A DNA stretch of 24,000 nt from Dubosiella muris (lineage in GTDB: Bacteria > Bacillota_I > Bacilli_A > Erysipelotrichales > Erysipelotrichaceae): assembly GCF_004793885.1 (NCBI RefSeq), contig NZ_SRYG01000006.1:1971-25970 (forward strand), given 5' to 3'. How positions within the stretch are numbered: the first letter of the stretch is position 1; every line of letters begins with the position of its first letter. The notes beneath the pieces are model-generated. The model saw only the letters and a program-made list of their open reading frames with translations. It did not search any database and was not told the origin of the DNA. Positions 1,035 through 18,113 of this stretch are shown here, one piece after another. The position numbers were made by a program, and so were the translations under genes.

Positions 1035-1133
1035 TATACCCGTTCGGGTGTTGATTTGTGCTGAATGTCCAATTTTATACCCGAAAAGGTATAAAATGGC
1101 TATTTTTGTTGAATATATACCCGAAAGGGTATA
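1035..1133. promoter_or_regulatory. Array of three 18-bp operator-like palindromes (TATACC-N6-GGTATA) upstream of the HTH/HipS/HipT operon
   Basis: O1 1035-1052 is TATACC-CGTTCG-GGTGTT (right arm 4/6). O2 1076-1093 is TATACC-CGAAAA-GGTATA (perfect). O3 1116-1133 is TATACC-CGAAAG-GGTATA (perfect). Centres are 41 and 40 bp apart. O3 fills the spacer of the predicted promoter. Confidence 0.7.
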
Positions 1134-1137
1134 AAAT
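1109..1137 (+). promoter_or_regulatory. Sigma-A-type promoter of the hip-like operon, possibly giving a leaderless mRNA
   Basis: TTGAAT (1109-1114), 17 nt, TAAAAT (1132-1137). Six nt separate the -10 from the ATG at 1144, and there is no Shine-Dalgarno between them. Confidence 0.5.
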
Positions 1138-1143
1138 AAAAAC

Positions 1144-1353
1144 ATGACAACGATTGGAAACTATATCAAAACGGAACGAAGAAAACTGGGAATCACGCAG
1201 GAGGAGTTCGCGCTGCGGGCCGGACTGGGACTGCGGTTTGTCCGTGAGCTGGAACAGGGAAAGGAAACGGTTCGAATGGATAAGGTGAACAAGGCGCTGC
1301 GGATGTTTGGCAAGGAAGCGGTGCCGGGTGATTTGGATCGGAGCGAGGAATGA
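1144..1353 (+). CDS. hipB: XRE/y4mF-type helix-turn-helix protein, HipB-like component of a HipBST-type module
   Basis: 69 aa. The HTH signature is LGITQEEFALRAGLGLRFVRELEQGK. Its stop overlaps the next start (ATGA at 1350-1353). Confidence 0.85.
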   Translation: MTTIGNYIKTERRKLGITQEEFALRAGLGLRFVRELEQGKETVRMDKVNKALRMFGKEAVPGDLDRSEE

Positions 1354-1673
1354 GAAAAGGAAGTGTATGGGTGGAGGAACGAAAAGCCGGAACGATTGAA
1401 GAGACGGATCGCGGATACCGGTTTTCCTATGAAAAAGACTATTTAGCCATGAAAGATGCGAAGGACGTCAGTTTGACTTTGCCGCTTCATGATGAACCTT
1501 ATGAATCGTCTGTGTTATTTCCTTTTTTTGATGGATTGATTCCGGAAGGCTGGCTATATGATGTGACGGTTCGAAACTGGAAGCTCGATCGTAAAGATCG
1601 TTTTGGCGTATTGCTTGTCGCCTGTAAAGATGCCATTGGAAATGTATCCATATGGGGGGAGAATGAAAGATGA
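1350..1673 (+). CDS. hipS: HipA N-terminal-subdomain protein (HipS-like, Couple_hipA type)
   Basis: 107 aa. The motif FPFFDGLIPEGW is typical of HipA N-terminal domains. GGAG lies 6 nt upstream. ATGA overlaps occur on both sides. Confidence 0.8.
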   Translation: MRKGSVWVEERKAGTIEETDRGYRFSYEKDYLAMKDAKDVSLTLPLHDEPYESSVLFPFFDGLIPEGWLYDVTVRNWKLDRKDRFGVLLVACKDAIGNVSIWGENER

Positions 1674-2629
1674 AATGTTTGTATTGCGGAAAGGAGATCG
1701 TCGATCCCGCGCCGGAAGAAATGGAGTCACAATGGCATACAGAATGTACTAAAAAATTTTTCGGAATGACTTTGCATCCGGTTCTTGATTTAGATGATTC
1801 GATCTTGCGGGAAATCGCTCGAAAAACGGTAAGCGAAGGATATACGGTGCCTGGCGTTCAAAAAAAGCTTTCTTTGCATTTGATCGAAGAAGAGAAGGGA
1901 TCGCGGTTAACGATCGTAGATTATCCGGCAGGATATATTTTAAAACCACAAACGGGAAAATTTTCCTATCTTCCAGAATTTGAGCAGTTGGGAATGCGCC
2001 TTGCGCAAATTGCTAAGATTCCTACCGTTCCATTCGGGTTGATTCGATTAAAAGATGGGACGTTGGCGTATATCACGAAACGAATTGACCGGTTGGAGAA
2101 AAAGAAAAAAGTCACAAAGCTGGCGATGGAAGATTTTTGCCAGCTTCAGAAACGTTTGACGGAAGACAAATACAACAGTTCTTATGAGCGGTGCGCAAAA
2201 ACAATAAAAAAATATTCGGCTTTCTATCAATTCGACTTAACTGAATTGTTTATCCGACTCGTTTTTGCGTTTCTCATTGGCAATTCCGATATGCATTTAA
2301 AAAACTTTTCGTTGATTCAAAACAAAGAAGGGGTGTATCAGCTTTCTCCGGTATATGATCAGCTTCCTGTTAACATCATAATGTCTAAAGATTTCGATCA
2401 AATGGCTTTAACGTTGAATGGAAAAAAGCGAAATTTGAGGCGAGGCGATTTTTTGAAGTTCGCGCATTCGATTGGGATTGAAAAGAAAACAGCTGAAAGA
2501 CTGATTGAGCGGATGCTGAAAAATATTGGCCGCTTTTTGGAAGCGTGCGAACAATCTTTTTTGCCCGAAGAAGAAAAAGAAAACGTGAAACGATTGATCC
2601 TGGAGCGGGCGGAATCGCTTCACGGATAA
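1670..2629 (+). CDS. hipT: HipA-C-terminal-type Ser/Thr kinase (HipT-like toxin) with an N-terminal Cys2-His-Cys knuckle
   Basis: 319 aa. The P-loop-like motif is YTVPGVQKK (T59). The catalytic motif is GNSDMHLKN (D207 at 2288-2290). YDQLP places D230 23 residues after D207, the spacing I recall for E. coli HipA D309/D332. GGGGGAG lies 8 nt upstream of the ATG. C3, C6, H23 and C26 sit at the N-terminus. Confidence 0.85.
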   Translation: MKCLYCGKEIVDPAPEEMESQWHTECTKKFFGMTLHPVLDLDDSILREIARKTVSEGYTVPGVQKKLSLHLIEEEKGSRLTIVDYPAGYILKPQTGKFSYLPEFEQLGMRLAQIAKIPTVPFGLIRLKDGTLAYITKRIDRLEKKKKVTKLAMEDFCQLQKRLTEDKYNSSYERCAKTIKKYSAFYQFDLTELFIRLVFAFLIGNSDMHLKNFSLIQNKEGVYQLSPVYDQLPVNIIMSKDFDQMALTLNGKKRNLRRGDFLKFAHSIGIEKKTAERLIERMLKNIGRFLEACEQSFLPEEEKENVKRLILERAESLHG

Positions 2630-2746
2630 AGAAAGCCGGCAAGTTTGGCGTCTTTACCGGTTTGGAAAAACAATAAAAAGGCTATCATTACGAAGGGGAT
2701 GCTCGAGAAGCAAAAGTAGAAATATCACGTAAACCGTGAAGAACTT

Positions 2747-2789
2747 AAAAAGGTAAAACCGCTTTATTTAAAGTGATTTTACCTTTTTT
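2747..2789. terminator. Bidirectional hairpin terminator between convergent hipT-like and pyruvate-kinase-like genes
   Basis: AAAAAGGTAAAA (2747-2758) pairs with TTTTACCTTTTT (2777-2788), and there is an inner CGCTTTA/TAAAGTG stem. An A-tract precedes it and a T-tract follows. The stem is AT-rich, so stability is moderate. Confidence 0.6.
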
Positions 2790-2830
2790 CTTTAAAGCTG
2801 TAAAACAAACGACATGAAGACGTGCCCGAA

Positions 2831-3814
2831 TTAAAAGGTACCATCCTCCCGGTCTTTCAGAGCAGTATACGCGGTTTGTGCAAAATAGTTCATCGCTTCG
2901 ACAGGATAAGAGCCAGACGCCGTTTCCCCCGTCAGCATAATCGAGGACGCCCCATTGTAAACCGCGTGGTAAATATCGGATATTTTCGCCCGTGTCGGGA
3001 TGGGAGAAGTCATCATCGAGTGCAGCATTTGCGTCACGATCATATACGGCTTTTCATGCCTGCGACATATTTTCTCCAAGTCGTGCTGCGCGCTGGCCAG
3101 ATGGACAAGACCAACCGAATCGGCAAGATCTCCACGGGCGATGATCAATTCATCGCAATACGGAAGCAGGGATTCCGCCATCGCGATTCCTTCTTTTGAT
3201 TCGATCTTGGCGTATAGGCAGGCGTTTTTTAGACCACACGCATCCATTTGCGCACGAACCTTTATCAAATCTTCTGTGCTGCGAACAAACGGCTGCATGA
3301 TGCCGGTGACGCCATATTGCGCCGCGCACGATAAATTATCGAAGTCTTCTTTTGTCAAAACCGGCAAAGGGATCGACACATTTTGGATGGTGATACTTTT
3401 CCGGGGAAGAAGCAGGCCGCCCCGGAGAACTTTGGATTTCTCATGATCTACGGTTTCAAGCAGGATCCTGCCATCGTCCACGAGGATTTGGACACCAGTT
3501 TTTAAATAGGGTCGCACACAATCCGGAAATCCAAGCGTGTTCGTCATCACGATATGATCTGTTTCCAGTGGCAAAGGCGATAAAGAAGCGGAGGTTCTTA
3601 ATTCCGGACCTTGCATATCTATAAGAAGCTGAGGAGAAACGCCGCACCGCTTGGCCGCGATATGAAAGTTGGCGATCCAGTCGGCATGTTGCGCCAGATT
3701 GCCATGCGACAAGTTCAGCCGCATCCCTGTGGCACCAGCCCGAAACAAAGCCATAATCGTTTCGACTTCATGGCAGGCCGGGCCAAGCGTTCCGAATATA
3801 TAAAGGTCTTTCAT
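2831..3814 (-). CDS. Short pyruvate-kinase-family protein (A and B domains only, no C-terminal domain)
   Basis: PK motifs are present: GTLGPA, MRLNLSHG, DMQGPELR, AKIESKEG, ARGDLA, TQMLHSM, PTRAKISD and MLTGETASGSYP. I chose the ATG at 3814 (MKDLYIFGTLGP aligns with PK N-termini) over the TTG at 3829 in the ORF track. The ATG lies 1 nt after the ldh stop. Confidence 0.75.
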   Translation of the reverse strand: MKDLYIFGTLGPACHEVETIMALFRAGATGMRLNLSHGNLAQHADWIANFHIAAKRCGVSPQLLIDMQGPELRTSASLSPLPLETDHIVMTNTLGFPDCVRPYLKTGVQILVDDGRILLETVDHEKSKVLRGGLLLPRKSITIQNVSIPLPVLTKEDFDNLSCAAQYGVTGIMQPFVRSTEDLIKVRAQMDACGLKNACLYAKIESKEGIAMAESLLPYCDELIIARGDLADSVGLVHLASAQHDLEKICRRHEKPYMIVTQMLHSMMTSPIPTRAKISDIYHAVYNGASSIMLTGETASGSYPVEAMNYFAQTAYTALKDREDGTF

Positions 3815-3815
3815 A

Positions 3816-4775
3816 TTAACGACTCTCAAGTACCGGATTCACAGTTTCCGTCCAGATTTTTTCTAACAACCGGCAGCTATCCAAAAACCGCTGCTGCTCG
3901 GCGGGTTCAAGCTCAAGCTCCAGCTTTTCAATGACGCCTTTCGCCCCGATGATAGCAGGAACCCCGTTATAAATACCCGTATAACCATATTCACCATTTT
4001 GTTTAGCCGAAACGGTAAGAATGCTGTTTTCGTCATTTAAAACGGCTTGGACAAGTCGATTGAGCGTCATTCCAATCCCGTAATATGTCGATTTTTTCCG
4101 ATTGACGATTTCGTACCCGGCATTGCGCACCTCGTCAAAGACTTCTTCCAGCATGTCTTCGTCGATTTTACGGGACTTCAATACATTCCGTATGGTCTTG
4201 CTTCCAATGCAGGCATGGGACCATGGCACAAAGCTCGAATCTCCGTGTTCGCCAAATACGTAAGCATGAATATTGTAAGGAGAAACCTGGAGACATTCGC
4301 TTAGACGAAAACGCAAACGAGCCGTATCCAGCAAGGTTCCCGTACCAATGACCCGGTTCGTCGGAAGGTTGGACACTTTCTGCGCGACCGCTGTCATTAA
4401 ATCAACCGGATTGGTCGCCACGATCAGGATGCCGTCAAAACCGGAAGCCATGATTTGCTCGGTGACCGACTGGACGATTTTTGTGTTATCGACCGTTAAA
4501 TCCAGACGGGTCTGATCGGAGCGCTGAATGATGCCGGCAGTGATGACGACAATATCGGCGCCTTTGCAGTCGGCATAGTCACCCGCTTTCATGCGGATTT
4601 GTTTTTTGGCAAAACAGCCGGCATGCTGCAAGTCCATGGCTTCGCCAATCGCTTTTTCTTTGTTCAAGTCGATTAAAACGAGTTCATCGACATTCCCCTG
4701 AACGACTAAGCTGTAGGCAAAGCTCATTCCCACCAGCCCTGTTCCAACGAGAACGATTTTTTTATTGTTTTTCAT
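3816..4775 (-). CDS. ldh: L-lactate dehydrogenase family 2-hydroxyacid dehydrogenase
   Basis: 319 aa. Motifs are the Rossmann GTGLVG, ITAGIIQRSDQTRLDL (LDH-type Gln and Arg), LDTAR and GEHGDS (catalytic His). GGAG lies upstream of the start. Confidence 0.85.
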   Translation of the reverse strand: MKNNKKIVLVGTGLVGMSFAYSLVVQGNVDELVLIDLNKEKAIGEAMDLQHAGCFAKKQIRMKAGDYADCKGADIVVITAGIIQRSDQTRLDLTVDNTKIVQSVTEQIMASGFDGILIVATNPVDLMTAVAQKVSNLPTNRVIGTGTLLDTARLRFRLSECLQVSPYNIHAYVFGEHGDSSFVPWSHACIGSKTIRNVLKSRKIDEDMLEEVFDEVRNAGYEIVNRKKSTYYGIGMTLNRLVQAVLNDENSILTVSAKQNGEYGYTGIYNGVPAIIGAKGVIEKLELELEPAEQQRFLDSCRLLEKIWTETVNPVLESR

Positions 4776-4847
4776 ATGATTGATTCAACTCCTTCAAAAG
4801 GAACTATAAGAGAGGCGGGATGAATAGAAAAGAAAGAGCGTGACAAG

Positions 4848-4874
4848 TTAAATTGCAGAACCACTGCATTTTAA
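4848..4874. promoter_or_regulatory. 27-bp near-perfect palindrome in the divergent ldh / regulator intergenic region (candidate operator)
   Basis: TTAAATTGCAG-AACCA-CTGCATTTTAA. The arms are 11 bp with one mismatch. The perfect core is TGCAG (4854-4858) / CTGCA (4864-4868). Confidence 0.45.
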
Positions 4875-4880
4875 GATGCA

Positions 4881-4909
4881 AAAAATTGCGTTTACTTTGC
4901 AAGAGCCAA
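4881..4909 (+). promoter_or_regulatory. Candidate sigma-A promoter of the PRD-regulator/PTS operon
   Basis: TTTACT (4881-4886), 17 nt, TATGAT (4904-4909). It would give a leader of about 55 nt that contains a cre-like element, AAAAAGCGCTTACA (4939-4952). Confidence 0.35.
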
Positions 4910-4971
4910 TTTTTATGATAAGTGTGTCAAGCGAAAGAAAAAAGCGCTTACATAATGAGGAGGTGGCAAAA

Positions 4972-6870
4972 ATGAGACTTTATTCAATCATGCGCGATTT
5001 TATCGAAACGGCTGATTGTCTGAATCTCAAGTATTTTACGGAAAAGTATCACGTTTCCAAACGGACAATACAAGGGGATCTCTCCTATTTCATGAATATC
5101 GGGGAGAGAAACGGGTTCAAGCTGCATACAATCCGTGGAAAAGGATATTTGCTGGAAGTGACAGACTCAGAAAAATTTGACCGGTTTGTTGCGCAGCTGG
5201 CCCAGCAGCATCCAACCGTTCCTCCAGACACACCTGAAAATTTGACCGCTTTTCTCGCGGTGCAAAAAGACTACATTTCTATGGAAGAAACAGCTTTCCA
5301 TTTTCACATCAATCGGTCGGCGGTCAAAGCGCTCATTAAAGAAGTTGAAACGTTTTGCCGCAAATACGATGTGGTTCTGGAAATCAAAAGCCATTATGGC
5401 TTGCGTCTAAAAAAAGACAATCTCGCATTTACGACGATGCTGGCGGAAATGCTGGAAGCGGATAATCCGGTGTTAAAGCTTTATATGGAGCAATCTCTTC
5501 CTGTTTTTCGGACCATCTATCCGTTTCTCATTGATCAGATTACCGAGAGCCGGCAGCAAATCAACTACAATGAACTGAAAACGATTTATATTTGGCTGGG
5601 AGCGATCGCTCTTCAGGCTTCGCTTCTTTGTTTGCCGGAAGAAAGATACCGCGTAAAAAACACCCCGGTCGATCGCATTGCGGACGCGGTTTTTCAACAG
5701 CTCAATAAAAACGCGGGTTTAAATTTCGCGGCCTGGCAATATGAAGTGTTTGTGGATGTGGTCCGAAGCAATATTCGACTTAAAGATGCCTCGCTGGATA
5801 TTAGCGACCAGCTGGAAAACCATATCGAAGAATTTTTGAAAGGAATTGACGCGCGATACAACACAAAATTTACGGATGACGAAAATTTCAAAAAAATGCT
5901 GTCGGAACATGTCTGTCTTCTTGTAAGCCGAAGCCATCAAAAAGTGTCGTATAAAAATTCGATGCTTCATGAAATCTGTATTCGGTATCCGCTCGTATTC
6001 AGTGTGGCAATCGAATTTTCCAATATGCTTCAACAACTGTACGGGATTACAGTGACCCAGGATGAAGCGGCTTTTATTGCTACTCATTTTGCAGGTCACC
6101 TGGAAAAAGAAAAGAGAGAAAAGCTCATGCGGTTTGATCGGGTAGCTGTCGTCTGCTCAAGTGGCGGCGGATGTGCTTATCTTCTGAAGATGCAGCTGGA
6201 AACGATTTTTCCCCAGCAAAAAATTCAGACATTCAGCTTTCTGAATATGGATGAACTCGAGTTATTCGATCCCGATATTATTTTCACGATCATGCCGCTA
6301 AACCGGGAGTTTAATATACCTATTATTTATATTCATGAGTTGTTGGAACCGGAAGATCTGGCAGCGATCCGGCAATTTCTATCTTATGACTGCATACAAA
6401 ATTTTCAATTATCGGATACATCAAGTAAATTTGATGCTTTGTTTTCCCGGCGATACTTTCAAGTTCGGAAAGCTGGTTCCTACAAAGAACTTATCTCCGA
6501 GATGGCGGATCAGTTGATAAAAGACGATGTTGTGGAAGCGGAATACAAAGACAGCGTGCTTGAGCGGGAAAAATACATGAGCACCGTATTCTTCAATGGC
6601 GTCGCGTTACCGCATCCAATCAAGCTTTGCGCAAAGAAAAGCGTGATTTCCGTCTGTATACTCGATACGCCTTTGATGGAGCAGGGAAAGGAAGTTCGCA
6701 CTGTTTTTCTTATCTCCCTTCGCAAAGATGAATATGGAAAATATGAGGAGATTACGAAGCTTTTTTACAAACTGATGCAGGACAGAGGAAGCGCCAGTCA
6801 CATGGCGGCTGCCCGTTCTTTTGAACAAATGCGATTGATTCTTAGAGAAGTGGAGGCTACGGTTTCATGA
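4972..6870 (+). CDS. PRD-domain transcriptional regulator with HTH, Mga-like HTH, two PRDs, an EIIB(Gat)-like and an EIIA(Mtl)-like domain (LicR/MtlR/ManR class)
   Basis: 632 aa counted from the ATG at 4972, which is preceded by GAGGAGGTG. The N-terminal HTH is LKYFTEKYHVSKRTIQGDL. The PRD signature is DEAAFIATHFAGHLE. The EIIB-like motif is VAVVCSSGGG and the EIIA-like motif is GVALPHP. The ORF-track start at 4876 has no RBS. Confidence 0.85.
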   Translation: MRLYSIMRDFIETADCLNLKYFTEKYHVSKRTIQGDLSYFMNIGERNGFKLHTIRGKGYLLEVTDSEKFDRFVAQLAQQHPTVPPDTPENLTAFLAVQKDYISMEETAFHFHINRSAVKALIKEVETFCRKYDVVLEIKSHYGLRLKKDNLAFTTMLAEMLEADNPVLKLYMEQSLPVFRTIYPFLIDQITESRQQINYNELKTIYIWLGAIALQASLLCLPEERYRVKNTPVDRIADAVFQQLNKNAGLNFAAWQYEVFVDVVRSNIRLKDASLDISDQLENHIEEFLKGIDARYNTKFTDDENFKKMLSEHVCLLVSRSHQKVSYKNSMLHEICIRYPLVFSVAIEFSNMLQQLYGITVTQDEAAFIATHFAGHLEKEKREKLMRFDRVAVVCSSGGGCAYLLKMQLETIFPQQKIQTFSFLNMDELELFDPDIIFTIMPLNREFNIPIIYIHELLEPEDLAAIRQFLSYDCIQNFQLSDTSSKFDALFSRRYFQVRKAGSYKELISEMADQLIKDDVVEAEYKDSVLEREKYMSTVFFNGVALPHPIKLCAKKSVISVCILDTPLMEQGKEVRTVFLISLRKDEYGKYEEITKLFYKLMQDRGSASHMAAARSFEQMRLILREVEATVS

Positions 6871-7925
6871 ATGAAACATTTTTACGCAAATTGAGCAATG
6901 CGGACGCGATCGCGTCCAAAGAAACGGAAGTGCGCGACCTGCTCGTGGAAGCCAATCGAGAGCATTGTGATGAAATTCGCTGCGACCATCTCGGAAGCGT
7001 GATTTTTGTGAAAAAAGGGTGTGGAGCCCATCCTTTGAAAATCATGTTTACCGCGCATATGGATGAAGTGGGATTTCGGGTACGGCATATTTCCGACCTT
7101 GGTTTTGTCTATTTAATAAAGACAGGTGGTGTGCTGGACAACTGTCTGGATATGCAAAAAGTCCGGATTACGACGCGATCAGGAAAAAAATTACCAGGCA
7201 TCATGAACTGCCAGCGGGACAAGGCGGGCCATCCAGACGATATTTATGTGGATTTAGGATTTGAAACAAGAGAACAAGCGGAAAAAGCAGGACTTGAAAT
7301 TGGCGATATGGTGACATTTGATACGACGTGCGTGTTGCCCGAAGGCACGGGAACCATCATGGGAAAAGCGATGGATGACCGTACTGGCTGTTATGTCGTC
7401 AGCAAGGTGCTGGAAAAGCTGAAGGACAGGCGGCTGGAAAACGACATCCTCATGTGCGCAACGAGCAGCGAGGAAGTCGGTACGCGCGGAGCGAAGACGG
7501 CGGTATTTCAGGAAGATCCCGACATTGTATTCGCGATTGACGTGGCCAACCACCCGGAGCTGGATCGAAGCTTTAAAAATCACCGCCAGCTTCATAAAGG
7601 ATGCATGATCGAGCATTATGACAAAACGATGGCGCCCAATGACAAGCTTCTGCAATTTGCTAAAGAAACCGCGCGAAAAGCGAACATTTCCTTTCAGGAG
7701 GACATGCTGAGCGGAGGCGGGACGGATTGCGCCCAGGCGCATCTGATTGGCAATGGAAAGCCGGCTCTGGTTATCGGGATTCCTTTGCGGTATTGTCATG
7801 GACCGGCATCTATTGCCAGTTTGAGCGATATAGACAACGCGGTCGCGTTCGTATGCGAACTCGCCGCTACACTAACAAGAAAGAACTACGAACAGTTTCT
7901 ACAGTTTACAGGAGGTATGAAATGA
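6867..7925 (+). CDS. M42 family metallopeptidase (FrvX/YpdE/CelM-like aminopeptidase)
   Basis: 352 aa. Motifs are AHMDEVGF, MGKAMDDRTG and SSEEVGTRGA. GGAGG lies upstream. The start overlaps the regulator stop (ATGA). Confidence 0.85.
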   Translation: MNETFLRKLSNADAIASKETEVRDLLVEANREHCDEIRCDHLGSVIFVKKGCGAHPLKIMFTAHMDEVGFRVRHISDLGFVYLIKTGGVLDNCLDMQKVRITTRSGKKLPGIMNCQRDKAGHPDDIYVDLGFETREQAEKAGLEIGDMVTFDTTCVLPEGTGTIMGKAMDDRTGCYVVSKVLEKLKDRRLENDILMCATSSEEVGTRGAKTAVFQEDPDIVFAIDVANHPELDRSFKNHRQLHKGCMIEHYDKTMAPNDKLLQFAKETARKANISFQEDMLSGGGTDCAQAHLIGNGKPALVIGIPLRYCHGPASIASLSDIDNAVAFVCELAATLTRKNYEQFLQFTGGMK

Positions 7926-8245
7926 CTGAATTGGAACAACAAATCGTAACGATTATTTCTGCGGCGGGTGCCAGTAAAGCGAAAGCTTTCGAAGCGCTCC
8001 GCAAAGTGAAAGAAAGCGATTATGATGGCGCCCGGGCTCTACTTGCTGAATCGAGACAGGCAGATCTGGAAGCGCATAAAGTACAGACCGCACTCATCAC
8101 GGCAGAAATGTCCGGGGAGGAGCGACCGGAAATCGGACTGTTGATGGTCCATGCCCAGGATCACTATATGACGAGCCAGCTGGCCCGGGATTTGGTTGAA
8201 GAATTTATTGAGATTTTTGAAGCAAAAGAAAAAGGAGGAAAATAA
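7922..8245 (+). CDS. PTS lactose/cellobiose-family EIIA component
   Basis: 107 aa starting MTELEQQIV. The VHAQDHYMT histidine motif is present. AGGAGG lies upstream. There is an ATGA overlap with the M42 gene. The ORF-track extension to 7727 is spurious. Confidence 0.85.
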   Translation: MTELEQQIVTIISAAGASKAKAFEALRKVKESDYDGARALLAESRQADLEAHKVQTALITAEMSGEERPEIGLLMVHAQDHYMTSQLARDLVEEFIEIFEAKEKGGK

Positions 8246-8246
8246 G

Positions 8247-8594
8247 ATGAAAATTGTATTGTGCTGTGCAGGTGGATTTTCTACCACTATGTTGATGGAT
8301 AACATGAAGAAAACGGTTCATAATTCTGCGAAATTGAATGATGAGGACTTTGCGTTCAAGGCTGTGCCTGTCGATTTGCTGCCGGCCGAAGTAGAAGACA
8401 CGGATGTGCTTGTCGTGGGGCCGCAAATCGCACACCGTATCGACTACATTCATGAAATGATTGATCCGTATCAAATTCCGCACATCATCGTAGACCAGGA
8501 TGTGTATGGAAAAATGGATGGCGCCACGGTTATGAAGCAGGTTCTGATCGCCCGCCGAAAAGCGGATCTGGCAAAAGCAAATAAGAAATCGTAA
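8247..8594 (+). CDS. PTS lactose/cellobiose-family EIIB component
   Basis: 115 aa starting MKIVLCCAGGFSTTML, which includes the active-site Cys motif. AAAGGAGG lies upstream of the ATG at 8247. Confidence 0.85.
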   Translation: MKIVLCCAGGFSTTMLMDNMKKTVHNSAKLNDEDFAFKAVPVDLLPAEVEDTDVLVVGPQIAHRIDYIHEMIDPYQIPHIIVDQDVYGKMDGATVMKQVLIARRKADLAKANKKS

Positions 8595-8618
8595 AAGTGA
8601 AGGGACAAGATAAAAGTT

Positions 8619-9944
8619 ATGATGAATAAATTCGAAACGTTCATGTCCAAATATTTGACGCCAATCGCCAATAAAATGGATCAGAACCGTTATTTGAGCG
8701 CGATCAAAAAAGCGATGGTCGCGATGACTCCGATTCTTTTGATCGGTAGTTTCTGTTTGATTCCGGAAGCGATTCCGAACATGATCGGTCCCAACAATCC
8801 AATATCCCAGTGGATCACGACCAATCTGGACATTATCTACATTCCTTACAATGTAGGAATGGCGCTTCTCTCGCTTTATGTGACGGCGGTTATCGCCTAC
8901 CATTTAGGAAAACATTACAAACTGGACATTCCCGGCGTTCTCTGCATGGCGATTATCGCTTTCTTGATGATGGGTGTTGACTATGGAGAAGACGGTGGAA
9001 TCAAATCCACTTATCTGGGGCCGAAAGGCTTGTTCGCGGCGATGTTTGCTTCCATTATCGCAGTGGAATTGTTCCGCTGGTGCAAGAAGAAAAACTTTAC
9101 GATTAAGATGCCGGAGTCGGTGCCGGATTTCGTATCCCGCTCTTTTGAAATGATTCCGATTAGTGTAATCATTATTGGTTTCTTCCTGATCATCCGAGTT
9201 GTGTGCGTCAATGTGCTGAACACGCTGCCGCCTCTGGTTTTCACGAATTTGTTCGCGCCTTTGGTCGGCTCCATGGACAACCCGTTTGCGGTTACGTTCT
9301 TGCAGATTTTGCGATGTCTGCTGTTCTTCTGTGGTATTCATCCATCGGTGCTTTCACCGATTACGAGCCCGATTTCAACGCAGTTTCTTGCTGAAAATAT
9401 CGAAATGGTCAAAGCCGGCGGCGAAGCGATCCACTTTTTCGCTCCTGGACCGGAATCGGCATTCGGAAACTTTACAGGCACCGGCGTGACGTTTGGTCTT
9501 GTGTTCTGGTGCTTGCTGTCCAAGGCAAAAGCAATGAAACAGGTTGGCCGCATCTCGCTGATTCCGGCGTTGTTTGGAATCAATGAGCCAATCTTGTTTG
9601 GCGCGCCGGTCGTATTGAACCCGATTTTCGCGATCCCATATGTAATCTGTGGTGGAATTATCGGCTCTATTCCGTACTGGATGATGTACTTTGGCTGGCT
9701 AAAGTGTTCCACTTTCACGCCACCATATGTTGGCGTTTTCCTGGAAGGATATTTGACGAACTTTGACTACATGTCTTTGGTTGCAAACGGAATCCAGCTA
9801 GTTCTGTCCATCTTGATATGGTATCCGTTCTTTAAAATTTATGAGAATCGTGAACTGCTGGCGGAAAAAGAAAAAGAGGAAAAACAAGATATTTTCAGTG
9901 CCGAAGATCAGGCTCTACTGGATGATTTACATCTTGATTTCTAA
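8619..9944 (+). CDS. PTS lactose/cellobiose-family EIIC permease
   Basis: 441 aa and polytopic-hydrophobic. Its N-terminus resembles ChbC/LicC (FMSKYLTPIANKMDQNRYLSAIKKAM). The start could instead be 8622. Confidence 0.85.
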   Translation: MMNKFETFMSKYLTPIANKMDQNRYLSAIKKAMVAMTPILLIGSFCLIPEAIPNMIGPNNPISQWITTNLDIIYIPYNVGMALLSLYVTAVIAYHLGKHYKLDIPGVLCMAIIAFLMMGVDYGEDGGIKSTYLGPKGLFAAMFASIIAVELFRWCKKKNFTIKMPESVPDFVSRSFEMIPISVIIIGFFLIIRVVCVNVLNTLPPLVFTNLFAPLVGSMDNPFAVTFLQILRCLLFFCGIHPSVLSPITSPISTQFLAENIEMVKAGGEAIHFFAPGPESAFGNFTGTGVTFGLVFWCLLSKAKAMKQVGRISLIPALFGINEPILFGAPVVLNPIFAIPYVICGGIIGSIPYWMMYFGWLKCSTFTPPYVGVFLEGYLTNFDYMSLVANGIQLVLSILIWYPFFKIYENRELLAEKEKEEKQDIFSAEDQALLDDLHLDF

Positions 9945-9951
9945 TGATTTC

Positions 9952-9980
9952 AAAGGGCAGGATTTTCTTGCCCTTTCTTT
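9952..9980 (+). terminator. Intra-operon hairpin (possible partial terminator or processing site) between EIIC and the M24 peptidase gene
   Basis: AAAGGGCA (9952-9959) pairs with TGCCCTTT (9969-9976), followed by CTTT. The GGAGGG RBS of the next gene follows immediately. Confidence 0.45.
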
Positions 9981-9989
9981 GGAGGGACA

Positions 9990-11072
9990 ATGGCGAAACA
10001 TATTGAAAACATTCGAAAAGAGTTAGGAAGGCACCGCGCCGACGCAATTTATCTCAAAAGCAAGACGATGAAAAAATATTTGGATACGATGACCGGGAGC
10101 GGTTGTCAAATCCTGATTGCGAAAGAGAAAGGTTATTTGCTGCTGGATGGCCGGTATGTGGAAGAAGCAAGACAAAAGGAACGGGATTTGGAAATTATTC
10201 TAACCGAAAATATAAAAGAGGAAATAAGCCGGATCATGAAAGAAAACGACTGGCATTGCCTGGCCGTGGAAAACAGCGAAACCTCTGTCAGTGCATATAA
10301 AGATTTCAAAGAAAAAGGGTTAGATGTGATTTTACTGGATGAGGAACTCGGACAAATGCGAATTGTCAAGGACGAAGAGGAAATCCGGCGCATTCAGGAA
10401 GCTGTCGATCGAACCGATTGGATTTTTGAACAAGTCAAAGCGAAAATCAAGGCAGGGATGACGGAGAATGAGGTTTCCGCCTGGCTGCAATACTACGCGA
10501 TCGCCAGTGGCGCCCAGCAGATGGCGTTCGACACCATTGTGTCGTCCGGAGAGCGGACCGCCCTGCCGCATGGCCGGCCGACGAATCGCAAGATCAGGCC
10601 CCATGAGCCGATCCTGATTGATTTTGGAATCCAATACAACAACTATCAGTCGGATATGACACGGATGCTCTTTATCGGGGAACCGTCTTCAGAAATGAAA
10701 AAAATTTATCATACGGTTCTGGTCGCGCAGACCACGGCGCTGGCCGCGATAGAAGAAGGAAAGACTGGACAGGAAATAGACGCGGTGGCCCGGAAAATCA
10801 TTACGGACGCCGGATATGGCGCGTATTTCGGTCATGGGCTCGGGCATGGAATCGGAATCGGGGATGGCAGCGAGCTGCCGCGGCTGAATCCAAAATCGGA
10901 TACCGTTTTGAAAGAAGGCATGCTGATGTCCTGCGAACCCGGCATTTATGTGCCGGGCGTCGGGGGTGTCCGCATTGAGGACGATGTCCTGATTCGCGAC
11001 GGGAAAGGCGTGGCCTTGAATCGTACTCCGAAAGAGATGTGCATTTTGCAGGAGGAAACACATGAACTATGA
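9990..11072 (+). CDS. M24B family Xaa-Pro aminopeptidase/dipeptidase
   Basis: 360 aa. Metal-ligand motifs are LIDFG, QSDMTR, HGLGHGIG, CEPGIY and VRIEDD. GGAGGG lies upstream. Confidence 0.85.
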   Translation: MAKHIENIRKELGRHRADAIYLKSKTMKKYLDTMTGSGCQILIAKEKGYLLLDGRYVEEARQKERDLEIILTENIKEEISRIMKENDWHCLAVENSETSVSAYKDFKEKGLDVILLDEELGQMRIVKDEEEIRRIQEAVDRTDWIFEQVKAKIKAGMTENEVSAWLQYYAIASGAQQMAFDTIVSSGERTALPHGRPTNRKIRPHEPILIDFGIQYNNYQSDMTRMLFIGEPSSEMKKIYHTVLVAQTTALAAIEEGKTGQEIDAVARKIITDAGYGAYFGHGLGHGIGIGDGSELPRLNPKSDTVLKEGMLMSCEPGIYVPGVGGVRIEDDVLIRDGKGVALNRTPKEMCILQEETHEL

Positions 11073-12273
11073 TTTTAATGAAGTAATCAATCGGAAAGGA
11101 ACGTATTGTACGCAATGGGATTATGTACAAGATCGCTTTGGGGAAAAAGACTTGCTGCCCTTTACGATTTCGGATACGGATTTTAAGATTCCGGTTCCGA
11201 TTACTGAAAAGATAAAAGAAGTGGCCGCGCATGAAATTTATGGGTACACGCGCTGGAACCATGCGGATTTTAAGAACAGTATTGCCGGGCATTACGGTCG
11301 AAGATTCAACACGCCAATTCAAAAGGAATGGATTTTATACAGTCCATCCGTCATGTATTCGGTCAGCTTGCTGATTCGGCTTTTAAGCGAGGAAGGAGAC
11401 GGCGTCTTGACGTTCGATCCGATGTATGACGCTTTTATGAATGTGATTGAACAAAATCACCGGAAGCTGATTGGCCATTCGCTCAACGCGGAAGAAGGAT
11501 GGTCGATTGATTTTGAACGGCTGGATAAAGAACTGGAGAGCGCTTCGATTCTTTTGCTTTGCTCGCCACACAATCCGACAGGCCGGGTTTGGACGAAAGA
11601 GGAAATGGATCAAATCGTGCGTTTGTGTAAAAAGCACCGCGTCAAAATCATTTCGGATGAAATTCATATGGACATCCATTTGCAGGGGGAGGCGCCGATT
11701 CCTTTGCTGCGATATATCGGCGAATATGACGGATTGTATACCGCCTCGGCCGCTTCGAAAATTTTCAATGTGCCCGGGTTGATTGGATCTTACGTTATGA
11801 TTCCGGATGAAGCCATTCGAAACGCGTTTTTGCATCAGACGCGCACGATGGATTTTCTAAATTCCGCCAGTATTTTCGGCATGCATGCGATCATGACCGG
11901 ATATAACGAATGTGACGACTACATTGACCAGTTGTCGGCGTACGTGTTCGAAAATATGAAATTTGTCCACGATTTCCTTGCGAGTCAGCTCCCGGATTTT
12001 CAGTTTGCAATTCCTCAGGCGACTTATTTGGCCTGGATCGACGTTTCCAATGTGCCGTTTGGGGCAAAAGAGATGCAGGAAGCGCTGGTAAAGGTTGGAA
12101 ACGTGGCGGTTATGAATGGCGAAGTGTATGGAAAGAATGGCAAAGGGTATTTACGGTTGAATTGCGGATGCCCGCGGACCAAGCTGGAAGAAGGGTTGCG
12201 ACGGGTGAAAATCGCGATGGATTCTTTGTACGACGCGAAACGAAAGGAGAACGCGGATGAAAAAACTGTTTAG
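11062..12273 (+). CDS. MalY/PatB-type PLP-dependent C-S beta-lyase (aminotransferase class I/II fold)
   Basis: 403 aa. The N-terminal RKGTYCTQWDY motif is typical of PatB/MalY. The PLP-lysine motif SAASKIFNVPGL is present. AGGAGGAA lies upstream. It overlaps the M24 gene by 11 nt. Confidence 0.8.
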   Translation: MNYDFNEVINRKGTYCTQWDYVQDRFGEKDLLPFTISDTDFKIPVPITEKIKEVAAHEIYGYTRWNHADFKNSIAGHYGRRFNTPIQKEWILYSPSVMYSVSLLIRLLSEEGDGVLTFDPMYDAFMNVIEQNHRKLIGHSLNAEEGWSIDFERLDKELESASILLLCSPHNPTGRVWTKEEMDQIVRLCKKHRVKIISDEIHMDIHLQGEAPIPLLRYIGEYDGLYTASAASKIFNVPGLIGSYVMIPDEAIRNAFLHQTRTMDFLNSASIFGMHAIMTGYNECDDYIDQLSAYVFENMKFVHDFLASQLPDFQFAIPQATYLAWIDVSNVPFGAKEMQEALVKVGNVAVMNGEVYGKNGKGYLRLNCGCPRTKLEEGLRRVKIAMDSLYDAKRKENADEKTV

Positions 12274-12838
12274 CTGGGTCGACCAGACGCCCAACAAAGT
12301 GAACACGACCGCGCGTTTGTACGCGTATTTGATTGACTGGGTGGTTGGTGGCGTGGTTTGCGCTTTTCCGGCCGTTCTTCTTTATGGATTGATTACACGG
12401 CGCAGCGATGTGTTTACGGATCTCTATGTGTTTCCGGCACTGGGGTACAGCCCGTTCTGGTCTTATCTTGGCGGTTTTCTATGTATTGTGGCAGCCATTG
12501 TTTATTTTGTTTATATTCCGTATAAAAAGTACGAGGGCCAGACGTTGGGCAAGAAAATCATGAAAATTAAAATCGTGAATAAAGATGGAAGCCGTGTCTG
12601 TTTGCGATCTTTGTTCGTTCGCCAGTGTATTGGTTTGATGATTGTGGAAAGCGGTGCGGTTGTGGTGGGTGGTTATTTTCGGCAAATGGCTACTTTGGCG
12701 CTTTCCTACAATGTGGATTCCTGGTGGCAAATGGCGGGGTCGATTTTGATCGTCCTGTCCGCGCTGCTGGTCGCTGTCACGCTCAGTCACCGCGCTTTGC
12801 ACGACTATTTGGCCAACACGAAAGTGGTGCCGGCTTAA
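12257..12838 (+). CDS. RDD-family membrane protein
   Basis: 193 aa. The RDD-like N-terminus is RLYAYLIDWVVGG, and several hydrophobic segments follow. AAGGAG lies upstream. It overlaps the lyase gene by 17 nt. Confidence 0.65.
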   Translation: MKKLFSWVDQTPNKVNTTARLYAYLIDWVVGGVVCAFPAVLLYGLITRRSDVFTDLYVFPALGYSPFWSYLGGFLCIVAAIVYFVYIPYKKYEGQTLGKKIMKIKIVNKDGSRVCLRSLFVRQCIGLMIVESGAVVVGGYFRQMATLALSYNVDSWWQMAGSILIVLSALLVAVTLSHRALHDYLANTKVVPA

Positions 12839-12841
12839 AGG

Positions 12842-12880
12842 AAAAAGATTCCCGGAAGACAATTTTCGGGAATCTTTTTT
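12842..12880. terminator. Bidirectional rho-independent terminator (end of the PTS operon and of the convergent Schlafen-like gene)
   Basis: AAAAAGATTCCCG (12842-12854) pairs with CGGGAATCTTTTT (12867-12879). It is flanked by an A-tract and a T-tract. Confidence 0.8.
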
Positions 12881-12909
12881 ATAGGGCATGGATTTTGATT
12901 TGGCGGTCT

Positions 12910-14166
12910 TTATTTTTTGAAGATCCTGTATTTTGTATTCATGCCGGAACCGTTTTTTTGAATCAATCCTTTAGAGGACAACGAATGCAGAAGGCGAACG
13001 GTTTTCGCTTTGCTGAAGCCGGTCCGCTCTTCCAGCTGCGCTCTCGACAACAAAGTCGAAGAAGACAAGTTGCTTAATATCGTCTTTTCATCGGCTGAAG
13101 TCTCGATGACCGTATCCGACACGGGAAGAACAACGGTGATGGAATTGTCGTAGATTTTAAATTCCGGACTGGCTTGATAGGGGTCATAGGCTTTCTTGAC
13201 CCTTTTGATTCCGGAGCCAAACATTTCAATGTACGCGAGTCTGAAAAAGATATTTCCTAAAATTGGATTTCGCAAAAAACTGATTTGTCCATCCAGATAT
13301 TCCGCTTCGCTGATGCCGGCCGGCAATCCGCCAGGCGACGTGATTTCTATTTTGTCTTGATCCATCGAAATCCTGATTCTTGTTTGGATGTCCCATGTCC
13401 GATGGACCAAGGCGTTTGCGAGCGCTTCGCGAAACGCTTCCTTTGGAATCATTTCTTTTTGGACGCGTTGGCTCCCTTCGATTTTTTCATAACAATAATA
13501 TTTCCGGTACATTTCCATCGCTTGATGGTACATACAGAAAACGGACATATGATCATAGGTTTGACGTTCCATGAGTTCGTTGATATTCCGCCCGTATCGT
13601 ACGAGATCCACGCCTGGAAACCGGTTTTCATCCGCGACAAGAGCCGCGGCGTGATTATAGGTGTTTTTATCCATCAACCCTAATGTTTTCAAAATGTCCG
13701 GTGTTATCGTTTCGACGCCTTTCTTTTGAAAAAATTCTTTTCCAAGTTGAGAGAAAGTCAAATCTTGTATAGATGAAGGCTGTTCTTCGTAGGTTTGATT
13801 CGAACCTTCCAGAATCAGGCGGTTTAGCTCAAGACGATCCACTTCGATCGTTGCCGAATCGTTTCTTTTATACGTTTTTCCTTTATAAAAATAAGGGGTG
13901 TAAGGACCTTTCAAGATGTTCAGGGTTATGGTTTGATCTTCGTTTATATCTAAAGTGTAGGAAGGGAGCGGCTTGATCGCATCGTTGATTTTGTTTTCCA
14001 AACGCAAACAGGCGTCAACCGGATGCTCGATTCCCGGAACCGTGCCATCGTCACGGATCCCAAAAATGATTTTTCCATCGCCAAAATTTGCGTAAGCTGA
14101 TATTGTTTTTAAAAATGAATTTGTATCGACGGTTTCTTTCAATTCCAGATTCCTGCTTTCGCGCAT
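12910..14166 (-). CDS. Schlafen/AlbA_2-domain protein with an HATPase_c_4-like middle domain and a C-terminal winged HTH (COG2865-type putative regulator)
   Basis: 418 aa counted from the ATG at 14166, which is preceded by AAAGAGGTGAT. The N-terminus is ESRNLELKE...AYANFGDGKIIFGI. The middle region is EALANALVHRTW...ITSPGGLP. The C-terminus is LSRAQLEERTGFSKAKTVRLLHSLSSKGLI. Confidence 0.75.
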   Translation of the reverse strand: MRESRNLELKETVDTNSFLKTISAYANFGDGKIIFGIRDDGTVPGIEHPVDACLRLENKINDAIKPLPSYTLDINEDQTITLNILKGPYTPYFYKGKTYKRNDSATIEVDRLELNRLILEGSNQTYEEQPSSIQDLTFSQLGKEFFQKKGVETITPDILKTLGLMDKNTYNHAAALVADENRFPGVDLVRYGRNINELMERQTYDHMSVFCMYHQAMEMYRKYYCYEKIEGSQRVQKEMIPKEAFREALANALVHRTWDIQTRIRISMDQDKIEITSPGGLPAGISEAEYLDGQISFLRNPILGNIFFRLAYIEMFGSGIKRVKKAYDPYQASPEFKIYDNSITVVLPVSDTVIETSADEKTILSNLSSSTLLSRAQLEERTGFSKAKTVRLLHSLSSKGLIQKNGSGMNTKYRIFKK

Positions 14167-14186
14167 TGTGATCACCTCTTTTTGAT

Positions 14187-14215
14187 ATTGTATATCGAAT
14201 CGAGTTGGTGTGCAA
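14187..14215 (-). promoter_or_regulatory. Sigma-A-type promoter of the Schlafen-like gene
   Basis: Read on the minus strand: TTGCAC (14215-14210), 17 nt, TACAAT (14192-14187). Confidence 0.6.
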
Positions 14216-14225
14216 CGAGAGCTTC

Positions 14226-14276
14226 CTCGACTCAAAAATTTATGAGTCGAGAGCTTTATCGACTCAAGTCGACTCG
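14226..14276. repeat. Cluster of four copies of the heptamer GAGTCGA/TCGACTC, including a 9-bp-stem inverted repeat
   Basis: CTCGACTCA (14226-14234) and TGAGTCGAG (14243-14251) form a perfect inverted repeat. Further copies are TCGACTCA at 14259-14266 and GTCGACTCG at 14268-14276. Confidence 0.7.
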
Positions 14277-14476
14277 TTCGTGCAGTAAAAAGGTTTTACA
14301 GGGGAAAACTTTTCACTTTCCGTAACGACAATCAGCTCGTTTGCCTGGTTGGCGGGCGTATCTGGTCTTTGTTCGTGAACCCCCGCCTTGTCGTCGTAGC
14401 CGTCGACGCCGATAAAAAACTTGTCCACAAGAAAGTGGCTCGCCGTGTCTTTGACAAACGGCCCGACGGCTGTTTT
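14264..14476 (-). pseudogene. Internal/3-prime fragment of a DeoR-family regulator (sugar-binding C-terminal domain) with no start codon
   Basis: My manual minus-strand translation gives [36 protein letters not shown]...ANELIVVTESEKFSPV. This carries the DeoR C-domain signatures VGP, VDKxFxGxDG and VVTxSxKF. A stop lies immediately upstream (14477-14479), and only 13 codons follow the SxKF motif. Confidence 0.6.
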
Positions 14477-17967: not shown

Positions 17968-18061
17968 TTCAAAGGAAGGCTCGCTGGCGCGAGATTCCGG
18001 ATTTTGACTATAAACAGGTTTGAGGGACGCCTTGAACCTTTTTTCGTATGTGGTGTTTCTT

Positions 18062-18090
18062 TTTACGTCGTCGGATCGTTTCGATATAAT
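18062..18090 (+). promoter_or_regulatory. Candidate promoter of the AmmeMemoRadiSam operon
   Basis: TTTACG (18062-18067), 17 nt, TATAAT (18085-18090). An AAGGAG RBS follows at 18098-18103. Confidence 0.45.
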
Positions 18091-18113
18091 CAAGAAAAAG
18101 GAGATGATGTTGT

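Follow-up and report, generated by a model that had tools for sequence, protein, structure and literature searches.

An operon of eight tightly coupled, co-directional genes occupies positions 4972-12838 of the forward strand in a 24,000-nucleotide stretch (hereafter the window) of the genome of Dubosiella muris, a mouse-gut member of the Erysipelotrichaceae. The operon joins a phosphotransferase system (PTS) of the lactose/cellobiose (Lac) family to a PRD regulator, an M42 and an M24B metallopeptidase, a pyridoxal phosphate (PLP)-dependent beta-lyase of the PatB/MalY family and a small RDD-family membrane protein. The cassette is genuine and its conservation strong; the literature describes it only superficially and has drawn it once, from Latilactobacillus sakei. 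The trio of M42 peptidase, M24B peptidase and MalY-clade lyase is a module attached to PTSs of differing families. As a tentative interpretation, to which we give somewhat less than an even chance, the operon would serve the catabolism of a conjugate between a sugar and an amino acid or short peptide, with the peptidases trimming it and the lyase eliminating the sugar phosphate.

A scan with an EIIC alignment, restricted to one genome per species, returned 50 loci, and about 50 orthologues of each protein were aligned. The hosts belong to the Erysipelotrichales, Lactobacillales (Granulicatella, Bavariicoccus, Ligilactobacillus, Lacticaseibacillus, Companilactobacillus, Tetragenococcus), Clostridia (Clostridium, Terrisporobacter) and Coriobacteriia (Olsenella, Olegusella, Atopobium/Lancefieldella, Collinsella), and so to both Bacillota and Actinomycetota. 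The identical eight-gene order is found in 32 of the 50 loci. The RDD gene is missing from eight, directly follows the EIIC gene in four (all Lactobacillaceae), and is missing together with the M24 gene from two; one Collinsella locus lacks the lyase and three are truncated by the contig. Overall the lyase is present in 49 loci, the regulator in 46 and the RDD gene in 39, the last being absent from Clostridium-type cassettes. EIIC identity among the cassettes of these 50 species is 57-84%. The megaplasmids of Enterococcus raffinosus and E. gilvus carry the same content in shuffled order (regulator-IIA-IIB-IIC-M24-M42-lyase), their EIIC and lyase being 43% and 45% identical to those of the window.

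The genes flanking the cassette vary from genome to genome. In the window, the block from about 1100 to 14300 has a guanine plus cytosine (GC) content of 43-49% against 55-60% in the flanks, and a GC content at third codon positions (GC3) of 0.45-0.58 against 0.68-0.73. Because of these variable flanks and the contrast in GC and GC3, the cassette can be said to behave as a self-contained unit that is transferred horizontally. An earlier note on this DNA, made from the sequence alone, had made its proposal depend on the gene association being conserved in other genomes. The association is decisively conserved: PTS, M42, M24 and lyase genes are found as a set in both phyla, under two arrangements and with different PTS families.

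A few of these loci have peculiarities of their own. In Terrisporobacter petrolearius (L056, 6931-9726) a 417-aa open reading frame (ORF) running in the opposite direction is inserted in the EIIC gene and splits it. The same locus has a type-I phosphomannose isomerase gene (12127-12960) that starts 5 nt after its lyase gene. It is the sole hint at a sugar identity (mannose), and as part of a single disrupted locus it is too weak to use. The sole lyase-less cassette, that of Collinsella tanakaei (L034), has an HPr gene (12211-12504) after the RDD gene. A CutC-family gene follows the lyase in one locus (L046, 11556-12290), a single case that is likewise too weak to use.

The reverse search started from the lyase. 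Two motifs taken from the lyase alignment were run against metagenome contigs and the 80 best loci were kept. A PTS EIIC gene lies just upstream on the same strand in all 66 loci with enough upstream DNA; 39 of these EIICs are of the Lac family, 23 are MalX-type (Glc family) and four are of the Fru family. In each of two Fru loci (L114 and L136) a PRD regulator is encoded together with an EIIC of the Fru family (62% and 57% identical to FryC, respectively), and the lyase comes last. L114, analysed in full, also encodes an EIIA_2 protein and homologues of FryB (75%), YpdF (46%) and YpdE (43%), and its lyase is 53% identical to that of the window. Judged by gene content, an operon of this type amounts to the E. 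coli fry operon plus a lyase. A further locus (L141) joins a Fru-type EIIBC to the lyase and a helix-turn-helix (HTH) regulator, and both MalX-lyase(-RidA) and Fru-EIIBC-lyase modules exist without any peptidase. In every case of this sample that could be judged the lyase clade is PTS-linked, regardless of transporter family. Among the MalX-lyase loci (L116-L146), 18 were inspected, and in 11 of them MalX is immediately preceded by a co-directional 324-aa ORF; judged from its sequence, this ORF looks like an RpiR-type regulator (HTH plus a sugar-phosphate-binding SIS domain).

The earlier note had remarked on the missing glycosidase, and the absence extends well beyond the operon. No ORF of the 24-kb window matches any glycoside hydrolase (GH) family, and among 53 homologous loci, each taken with 9 kb of DNA to either side, none has GH4 and three have GH1. 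Two of the three GH1 neighbors (L015, L028) belong to separate operons, the one in L028 standing directly after a second EIIC gene. The LDH-like gene upstream of the operon was considered as a hidden GH4 glycosidase and rejected, being a true L-lactate dehydrogenase (L-LDH) by TIGR01771 (Table 1). No linked glycosidase or sugar-processing enzyme was found, the minimal regulator-MalX-lyase-RidA modules included. The company of a GH1 or GH4 phospho-glycosidase, which is usual though not strictly defining for the Lac family, is thus lacking here.

The transporter itself is an orthodox member of its family by its phosphorylation-site residues. EIIA is 44% identical to E. coli ChbA, and its His77 aligns with ChbA His89; EIIB is 30% identical to ChbB, and its Cys7 aligns with ChbB Cys10. 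Both residues are invariant in 48 sequences. EIIC, which matches a Dubosiella muris protein at 100% identity, belongs to the Lac family (TC 4.A.3) by the subfamily model TIGR00410 lacE (253.8, cut-off 236). It falls below the equivalog cut-offs for cellobiose (253.8 vs 434), lactose (208 vs 614) and chitobiose (118 vs 760) transporters. It is 26% identical to E. coli ChbC, and the motifs GIH241PS and INE323P are invariant in the orthologue alignment. The regulator is a PRD activator of the MtlR/LicR type, with significant PRD and EIIA_2 domains in the window protein. HTH_11 and Mga domains are seen in its orthologues, and the HTH matches are weak in the window regulator itself.

Both peptidases resemble those of the E. 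coli fry/ypd cluster. The M42 protein scores above the cut-off of the NCBIfam YpdE equivalog NF007421 (414.6 vs 412) and is 39% identical to E. coli YpdE. Its best match in the PDB, 1ylo from Shigella, scores the same as E. coli YpdE and is on that ground taken for the YpdE orthologue. Among the metal and catalytic residues, H64, D66, D170, E202, E203, D225 and H311 are invariant in 51 sequences. The M24 protein is YpdF-like: its best NCBIfam model is YpdF NF007310, at 242 it remains below the equivalog cut-off of 393, and it is 37% identical to E. coli YpdF. PDB matches include 3q6d (a prolidase) and, third-best, 5cnx (YpdF). The pita-bread and Creatinase_N domains are present and the five metal ligands (D211, D222, H286, E316, E330) are invariant in about 50 orthologues.

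The lyase scores 340.5 with TIGR04350, barely above the cut-off of 340. Its best PDB match is E. coli MalY (1d2f, 331 bits), to which it is 41% identical; B. subtilis PatB scores 263 bits. The PLP-binding K233, the catalytic Y122, the PLP-anchoring D199 and the carboxylate-binding R365 are shared with MalY and invariant in 50 cassette lyases. In a neighbor-joining tree the cassette lyases cluster with the MalX-linked lyases of E. coli, Klebsiella, Photobacterium and Cetobacterium. The stand-alone PatB of Priestia, a Faecalibacillus paralogue and C. difficile PatB fall outside this PTS-linked clade. Residues invariant within the clade include, in window numbering, Q18 (Lys in the outgroups), R25, R64-W65, D123, Y244 and K374. 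With the catalytic residues intact in both peptidases, the lyase and the three PTS proteins, the cassette enzymes look active.

Several loci encode enzymes that could handle the products of the lyase. RidA, which quenches the aminoacrylate released by PLP beta-eliminases, is encoded directly after the lyase in four Lactobacillaceae cassettes (L028, L029, L053, L054) and in six MalX-lyase loci, and after the RDD gene in two metagenomic cassettes (L102, L103). In Lacticaseibacillus salsurae (L028) an L-LDH gene follows RidA. Orthologous D-2-hydroxyacid dehydrogenases flank four Erysipelotrichales/Coprobacillaceae cassettes, and that of L041 starts 5 nt after the lyase. The L-LDH of the window has an orthologue in the same position in six relatives (L007, L009, L019, L099, L102, L103) and is a possible accessory gene for a pyruvate end-product. 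Synteny accounts for part of this pattern, but the RidA and dehydrogenase neighbors all point to a 2-oxo acid product. In several lineages RidA and lactate/2-hydroxyacid dehydrogenase genes come directly after the lyase, a position that fits with beta-elimination to a 2-oxo acid in vivo.

The E. coli K-12 annotation gives the orders fryB-fryC-ypdF-ypdE-fryA and malX-malY, which bears out the gene partnerships named in the earlier note. The kinship with these clusters is closer than had been guessed there, with the MalY, YpdE and YpdF structures among the matches and with fry-like operons that carry the lyase. Like the window, fry/ypd has a PTS and two peptidases, M42 of the YpdE type and M24B of the YpdF type, and lacks a glycosidase. 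Unlike the window, its PTS is of the Fru family, FryA is an EI-HPr-EIIA fusion, and lyase, RDD protein and PRD regulator are absent. Because its own PTS is of the Lac family, the window operon is likened to the Fry/Ypd clusters in function and is not a member of them. In malX-malY (also in Klebsiella, Photobacterium, Cetobacterium and metagenomes) a MalY-clade lyase likewise lies directly downstream of EIIC(B) and shares the clade-specific residues with the window lyase. These loci differ in their Glc-family transporter, the lack of peptidases and their LacI-type (MalI) or RpiR-like regulators, and E. coli MalY binds MalT. The chbBCARFG operon of E. coli has EIIA, EIIB and EIIC of the same family as the window, with the same phosphorylation residues. 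It differs in encoding the GH4 phospho-glycosidase ChbF and the deacetylase ChbG, and in an EIIC as distant as noted above. A literature search found no substrate assigned to this cassette or to any of the three clusters fry, frv and malXY. The sgc cluster of E. coli is likewise not known to have a physiological substrate.

The cassette has one published portrait. Kato & Oikawa 2018 (PMC5845896) drew a strain-specific 8-kb island of Latilactobacillus sakei LT-13, LACBS_00568-00576. By its published gene list this is the same cassette, with PRD protein(s), an aminopeptidase, Lac/cel IIA, IIB and IIC, an RDD protein, a second aminopeptidase and MalY, in the order found in the other Lactobacillaceae (L028, L029, L053, L054). 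Since the cluster is specific to the strain (L. sakei LK-145 lacks it), it fits a mobile island. The lyase alone was studied there; MalY of LT-13 is a PLP enzyme with cystathionine beta-lyase and broad amino-acid racemase activity, and the study notes the malXY parallel and calls the physiological function unknown (PMC5845896).

Two further systems offer partial parallels. On a C. difficile plasmid (L063, 2207-6188) an amidohydrolase, an AbgT transporter and a PatB-family lyase outside the PTS-linked clade are encoded in that order. As proposed for the window, this set would import a conjugate, trim it with a metallopeptidase and cleave it at the beta-carbon by a PatB-family lyase. Its transporter, in contrast, is not a PTS, so that no sugar phosphorylation is implied, and its lyase belongs elsewhere in the tree. 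The thioalcohol pathway of Staphylococcus hominis follows the same logic of transporter, dipeptidase and PatB for cysteine S-conjugates. Chemical precedent comes from lincomycin biosynthesis, where the fold-type-I PLP enzyme LmbF beta-eliminates S-glycosyl-L-cysteine (PMC11794154). LmbF differs from the window lyase in being biosynthetic and without a PTS link, and it is not among the PDB matches of the lyase at E <= 1e-20.

Taken together, these features suggest the following pathway. The Lac-family EIIABC would import a serine, threonine or cysteine glycosylated on its side chain, or a short peptide containing it, and would phosphorylate the sugar on entry. The M42 and M24B peptidases would then remove neighboring residues, the Xaa-Pro peptidase dealing with proline-rich contexts, until a single amino acid is left with free amino and carboxyl groups and a phospho-sugar attached to its beta-carbon through oxygen or sulfur. 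An alpha,beta-elimination by the MalY-clade PLP lyase would release the sugar phosphate (or thio-sugar phosphate) and aminoacrylate, and the latter would yield pyruvate (or 2-oxobutyrate) and ammonia, assisted by RidA where it is encoded. In such a scheme the lyase would stand in for the phospho-glycosidase of ordinary Lac-family operons, and the PRD regulator would tie expression to transport via the PTS. We infer from gene content what kind of compound is imported, and also infer in which order the steps run, that the sugar is the leaving group of the lyase, and that the compound has a constant amino-acid part and a variable sugar part. A sugar-amino acid or sugar-peptide substrate had already been proposed in the earlier note; comparative genomics, through the gene association and the E. 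coli link, supports this general interpretation, in which the conjugate would be the substrate.

The enzymes constrain where the sugar could be attached. A fold-type-I PLP beta-lyase requires a free amino acid whose beta-carbon bears a leaving group. Aminopeptidases require a free N-terminus, and the sugar should therefore not be on the alpha-amine. Amadori and other N-linked glycation substrates were rejected: no SIS-type deglycase is linked, a sugar on the alpha-nitrogen blocks aminopeptidases, and the epsilon position of lysine is out of reach for a PLP beta-lyase. Muropeptides from peptidoglycan were also rejected, no etherase, amidase or NagZ/MupG-type enzyme being linked. Between the two remaining linkages we lean towards oxygen. 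An O-linked sugar is the more economical because an ordinary sugar 6-phosphate results and no locus encodes the processing of a thio-sugar phosphate. The C-S chemistry known for the family would better suit an S-linked sugar, and the evidence speaks neither for nor against the S-glycosyl-cysteine suggested in the earlier note.

Several points weigh against this pathway. The characterised MalY/PatB enzymes are C-S lyases, and to our knowledge cleavage of the C-O bond of a glycosyl-serine has never been reported for the family. We also know of Lac-family PTSs solely for beta-linked di- and oligosaccharides. The lyase would need a free alpha-carboxylate and both peptidases are N-terminal exopeptidases, so that of the possible end-games solely that of an Xaa-Pro dipeptide is covered. 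In one locus (L013) a GH1 gene adjoins the cassette upstream on the same strand. RidA and dehydrogenase neighbors occur in a minority of loci, and the L-LDH linkage may reflect synteny among related genomes. The lyase tree is a neighbor-joining tree without support values. The 80 metagenomic loci were kept as the top matches to the lyase, and many share a species; they are therefore not an unbiased sample. The literature search found no experiment on the cassette that names an inducer or a substrate.

The operon could alternatively encode an ordinary PTS of the beta-glucoside or chitobiose type, with its glycosidase elsewhere in the genome and with peptidases and lyase merely co-regulated on unrelated substrates, for example in the regulon of a protein-rich niche. 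YpdE and YpdF have generic activities in vitro, EIIA, EIIB and EIIC are standard for the Lac family with all phosphorylation-site residues, and GH1 genes do occur near three of the 53 cassettes; the in vitro activities of MalY/PatB are generic as well (PMC5845896). We nevertheless consider this explanation unlikely. The gene content survives the shuffling of its order, transfer between phyla and the swap of the whole PTS from Lac to Fru, while the flanking genes vary, and none of the 66 judgeable loci has the lyase clade without a PTS. The low EIIC scores with the cellobiose, lactose and chitobiose equivalogs, together with 26% identity to ChbC, also argue against it. A different substrate, an amino sugar linked to an aminoacyl group through an amide (aminoacyl-glucosamine, or a bacillithiol-like Cys-GlcN), would make amidases of M42 and M24 and a cysteine desulfhydrase of the lyase. 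A monosaccharide would need no glycosidase, the M42 protein also scores on M20 and M28 models (families that include deacylases), MalY/PatB enzymes desulfhydrate cysteine, and RidA and LDH suit pyruvate from cysteine. This substrate is nonetheless improbable, more so than an ordinary PTS. In the MalX-lyase(-RidA) and Fru-EIIBC-lyase modules peptidases are lacking and the lyase must therefore meet the PTS product directly; moreover, no amino-sugar-phosphate deaminase or deacetylase is linked, and the breakdown of free cysteine needs no dedicated lyase strictly co-inherited with a PTS.

Two other explanations concern single proteins, and both are very improbable. The lyase might act mainly as a regulatory partner of the PRD regulator or of the PTS, much as E. 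coli MalY, which is annotated as a negative regulator of MalT. A PRD regulator does accompany the cassette in most loci (46 of 50), but the regulators vary with the context (PRD-type, RpiR-like, MalI), RidA follows the lyase in three PTS contexts, and the PLP lysine and the catalytic tyrosine, aspartate and carboxylate-binding arginine are invariant in 50 sequences. L. sakei, moreover, has the cluster and lacks MalT (PMC5845896). The M42 protein might instead be the missing sugar-cleaving enzyme of an ordinary glycoside operon, in the tradition of cellulase M, and several M42 entries of the PDB are indeed titled endoglucanase or glucanase homologue. Characterised M42 proteins, however, are metallo-aminopeptidases and the glucanase label is deemed an annotation error. 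The full ligand set of a di-metal aminopeptidase is invariant, the M24B peptidase and the lyase would be left unexplained, and MalX-lyase modules do wholly without M42.

Returning to the conjugate pathway, that a Lac-family PTS operon should harbor new biochemistry is plausible but unproven. In a stronger and rather doubtful form of the idea, MalY-clade lyases would be an unrecognised class of PTS-coupled, PLP-dependent deglycosylating enzymes that, once the PTS has taken up O-glycosyl-serine/threonine or S-glycosyl-cysteine, free sugar 6-phosphate from it through beta-elimination rather than hydrolysis, with the peptidases extending the range to proline-rich mucin-type or O-GlcNAc peptides. 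If true, this would give a physiological function to the cryptic malXY and fry/ypd clusters of E. coli, and probably to frv, and would establish a new way in which bacteria of the gut, the mouth and food break down glycopeptides. Removal of the sugar by the lyase would be a new biochemical deglycosylation and would open a new nutrient niche, that of glyco-amino acids and glycopeptides from mucin, host cells, meat and dairy. In these habitats the operon could be a source of pyruvate and ammonia, and possibly of thiols or H2S. All the odd components of malXY, fry/ypd and frv, clusters that have been without an assigned physiological substrate for about 30 years, are united here in one operon. 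Their co-inheritance across phyla and PTS families turns a long-open question into a testable hypothesis, and culturable hosts are at hand in L. sakei LT-13, Longicatena caecimuris DSM 29481, Faecalibacillus spp., Clostridium baratii and Lancefieldella parvula.

The features of the operon and its immediate surroundings are collected in Table 1. The eight-gene arrangement agrees with the earlier note in gene families, tight packing and start coordinate. Successive genes are separated by -4, -4, +1, 24, 45, -11 and -17 nt, and GGAGG-like sites precede most of the junctions. The regulator ORF is open from 4876. Its likely start is 4972, which is favored because homologues are 633-638 aa long and the promoter-like site lies inside the longer ORF. 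Counts from the scan for promoter and terminator consensus sequences, internal sites included, are not above those in shuffled sequence. The hairpin after the RDD gene is preceded by an A-run and followed by a U-run, and it is therefore possibly a bidirectional terminator. An Rfam scan of the whole window found no family at the gathering score, and no riboswitch or RAT-type leader was detected.

Table 1. Features of the PTS-peptidase-lyase operon and its flanks (window coordinates)
Feature	Position	Strand	Evidence
L-lactate dehydrogenase, divergent from the regulator	3816..4775	-	TIGR01771 375 vs cut-off 303.6
Promoter-like site TTTACT-17-TATGAT, upstream of the likely regulator start	4891..4919	+	consensus match only
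Regulator, PRD and C-terminal EIIA(Mtl/Fru)-type domain	4972..6870	+	Pfam PRD 2.4e-16, PTS_EIIA_2 2.5e-19
M42 (TET-type) metallo-aminopeptidase, YpdE-like	6867..7925	+	Pfam Peptidase_M42 8e-76
PTS EIIA, lactose/cellobiose family	7922..8245	+	Pfam PTS_IIA 2.5e-27
PTS EIIB, lactose/cellobiose family	8247..8594	+	Pfam PTS_IIB
PTS EIIC, divergent lactose/cellobiose-family branch	8619..9944	+	Pfam PTS_EIIC 6.9e-42
M24B Xaa-Pro peptidase/prolidase-type metallopeptidase, YpdF-like	9990..11072	+	Pfam Peptidase_M24 2.3e-66, Creatinase_N 5.4e-10
PLP-dependent beta-lyase, PTS-linked MalY clade (PatB/MalY family)	11062..12273	+	TIGR04350
RDD-family small membrane protein	12257..12838	+	Pfam RDD 5.9e-20
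Intrinsic terminator hairpin after the RDD gene, U-run	12841..12880	+	-22.2 kcal/mol, z = -6.3; 0/200 shuffles fold equally well

The low-GC block, about 13 kb long, has the look of an acquired island. It holds a HipBST-like gene set, the pair of pyruvate-kinase and LDH genes, the PTS cassette and a Schlafen/AlbA_2 gene. The region 1144-2629 (forward strand) encodes an HTH antitoxin of the HipB/Y4mF type (69 aa) and, as separate proteins, the N-terminal domain (107 aa) and the C-terminal kinase domain (319 aa) of HipA. Their stop and start codons overlap, and the toxin-antitoxin-like set looks like a split tripartite system of the HipBST type. The pyruvate-kinase gene (2831-3829, reverse strand) encodes the barrel part only (model positions 5-336 of 476), has no C-terminal domain and scores under every pyruvate-kinase cut-off. 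It is co-oriented with the LDH gene, whose end it overlaps by 14 nt. This gene was seen in this genome only, the LDH genes of relatives being without it as a neighbor. Convergent with the operon, and having the terminator hairpin in common with it, is a gene for a 441-aa protein (12910-14235, reverse strand) with Schlafen/AlbA_2 and HATPase_c_4 domains, a weak MarR-like winged HTH and no NCBIfam match.

Beyond the island, a second protein with PRD and EIIA_2 domains (401 aa) is encoded at 16918-18123 on the reverse strand, with no N-terminal DNA-binding region and no adjoining PTS genes. Either its start was mis-set or the gene is what remains, truncated, of another PTS regulator. The region at 18114-20317 (forward strand) encodes a protein in which a LigB-fold (Memo-like) domain is fused to AMMECR1 and, after it, the radical SAM partner. 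With TIGR04335 and TIGR04337 both above cut-off, the two genes represent an AmmeMemoRadiSam system.

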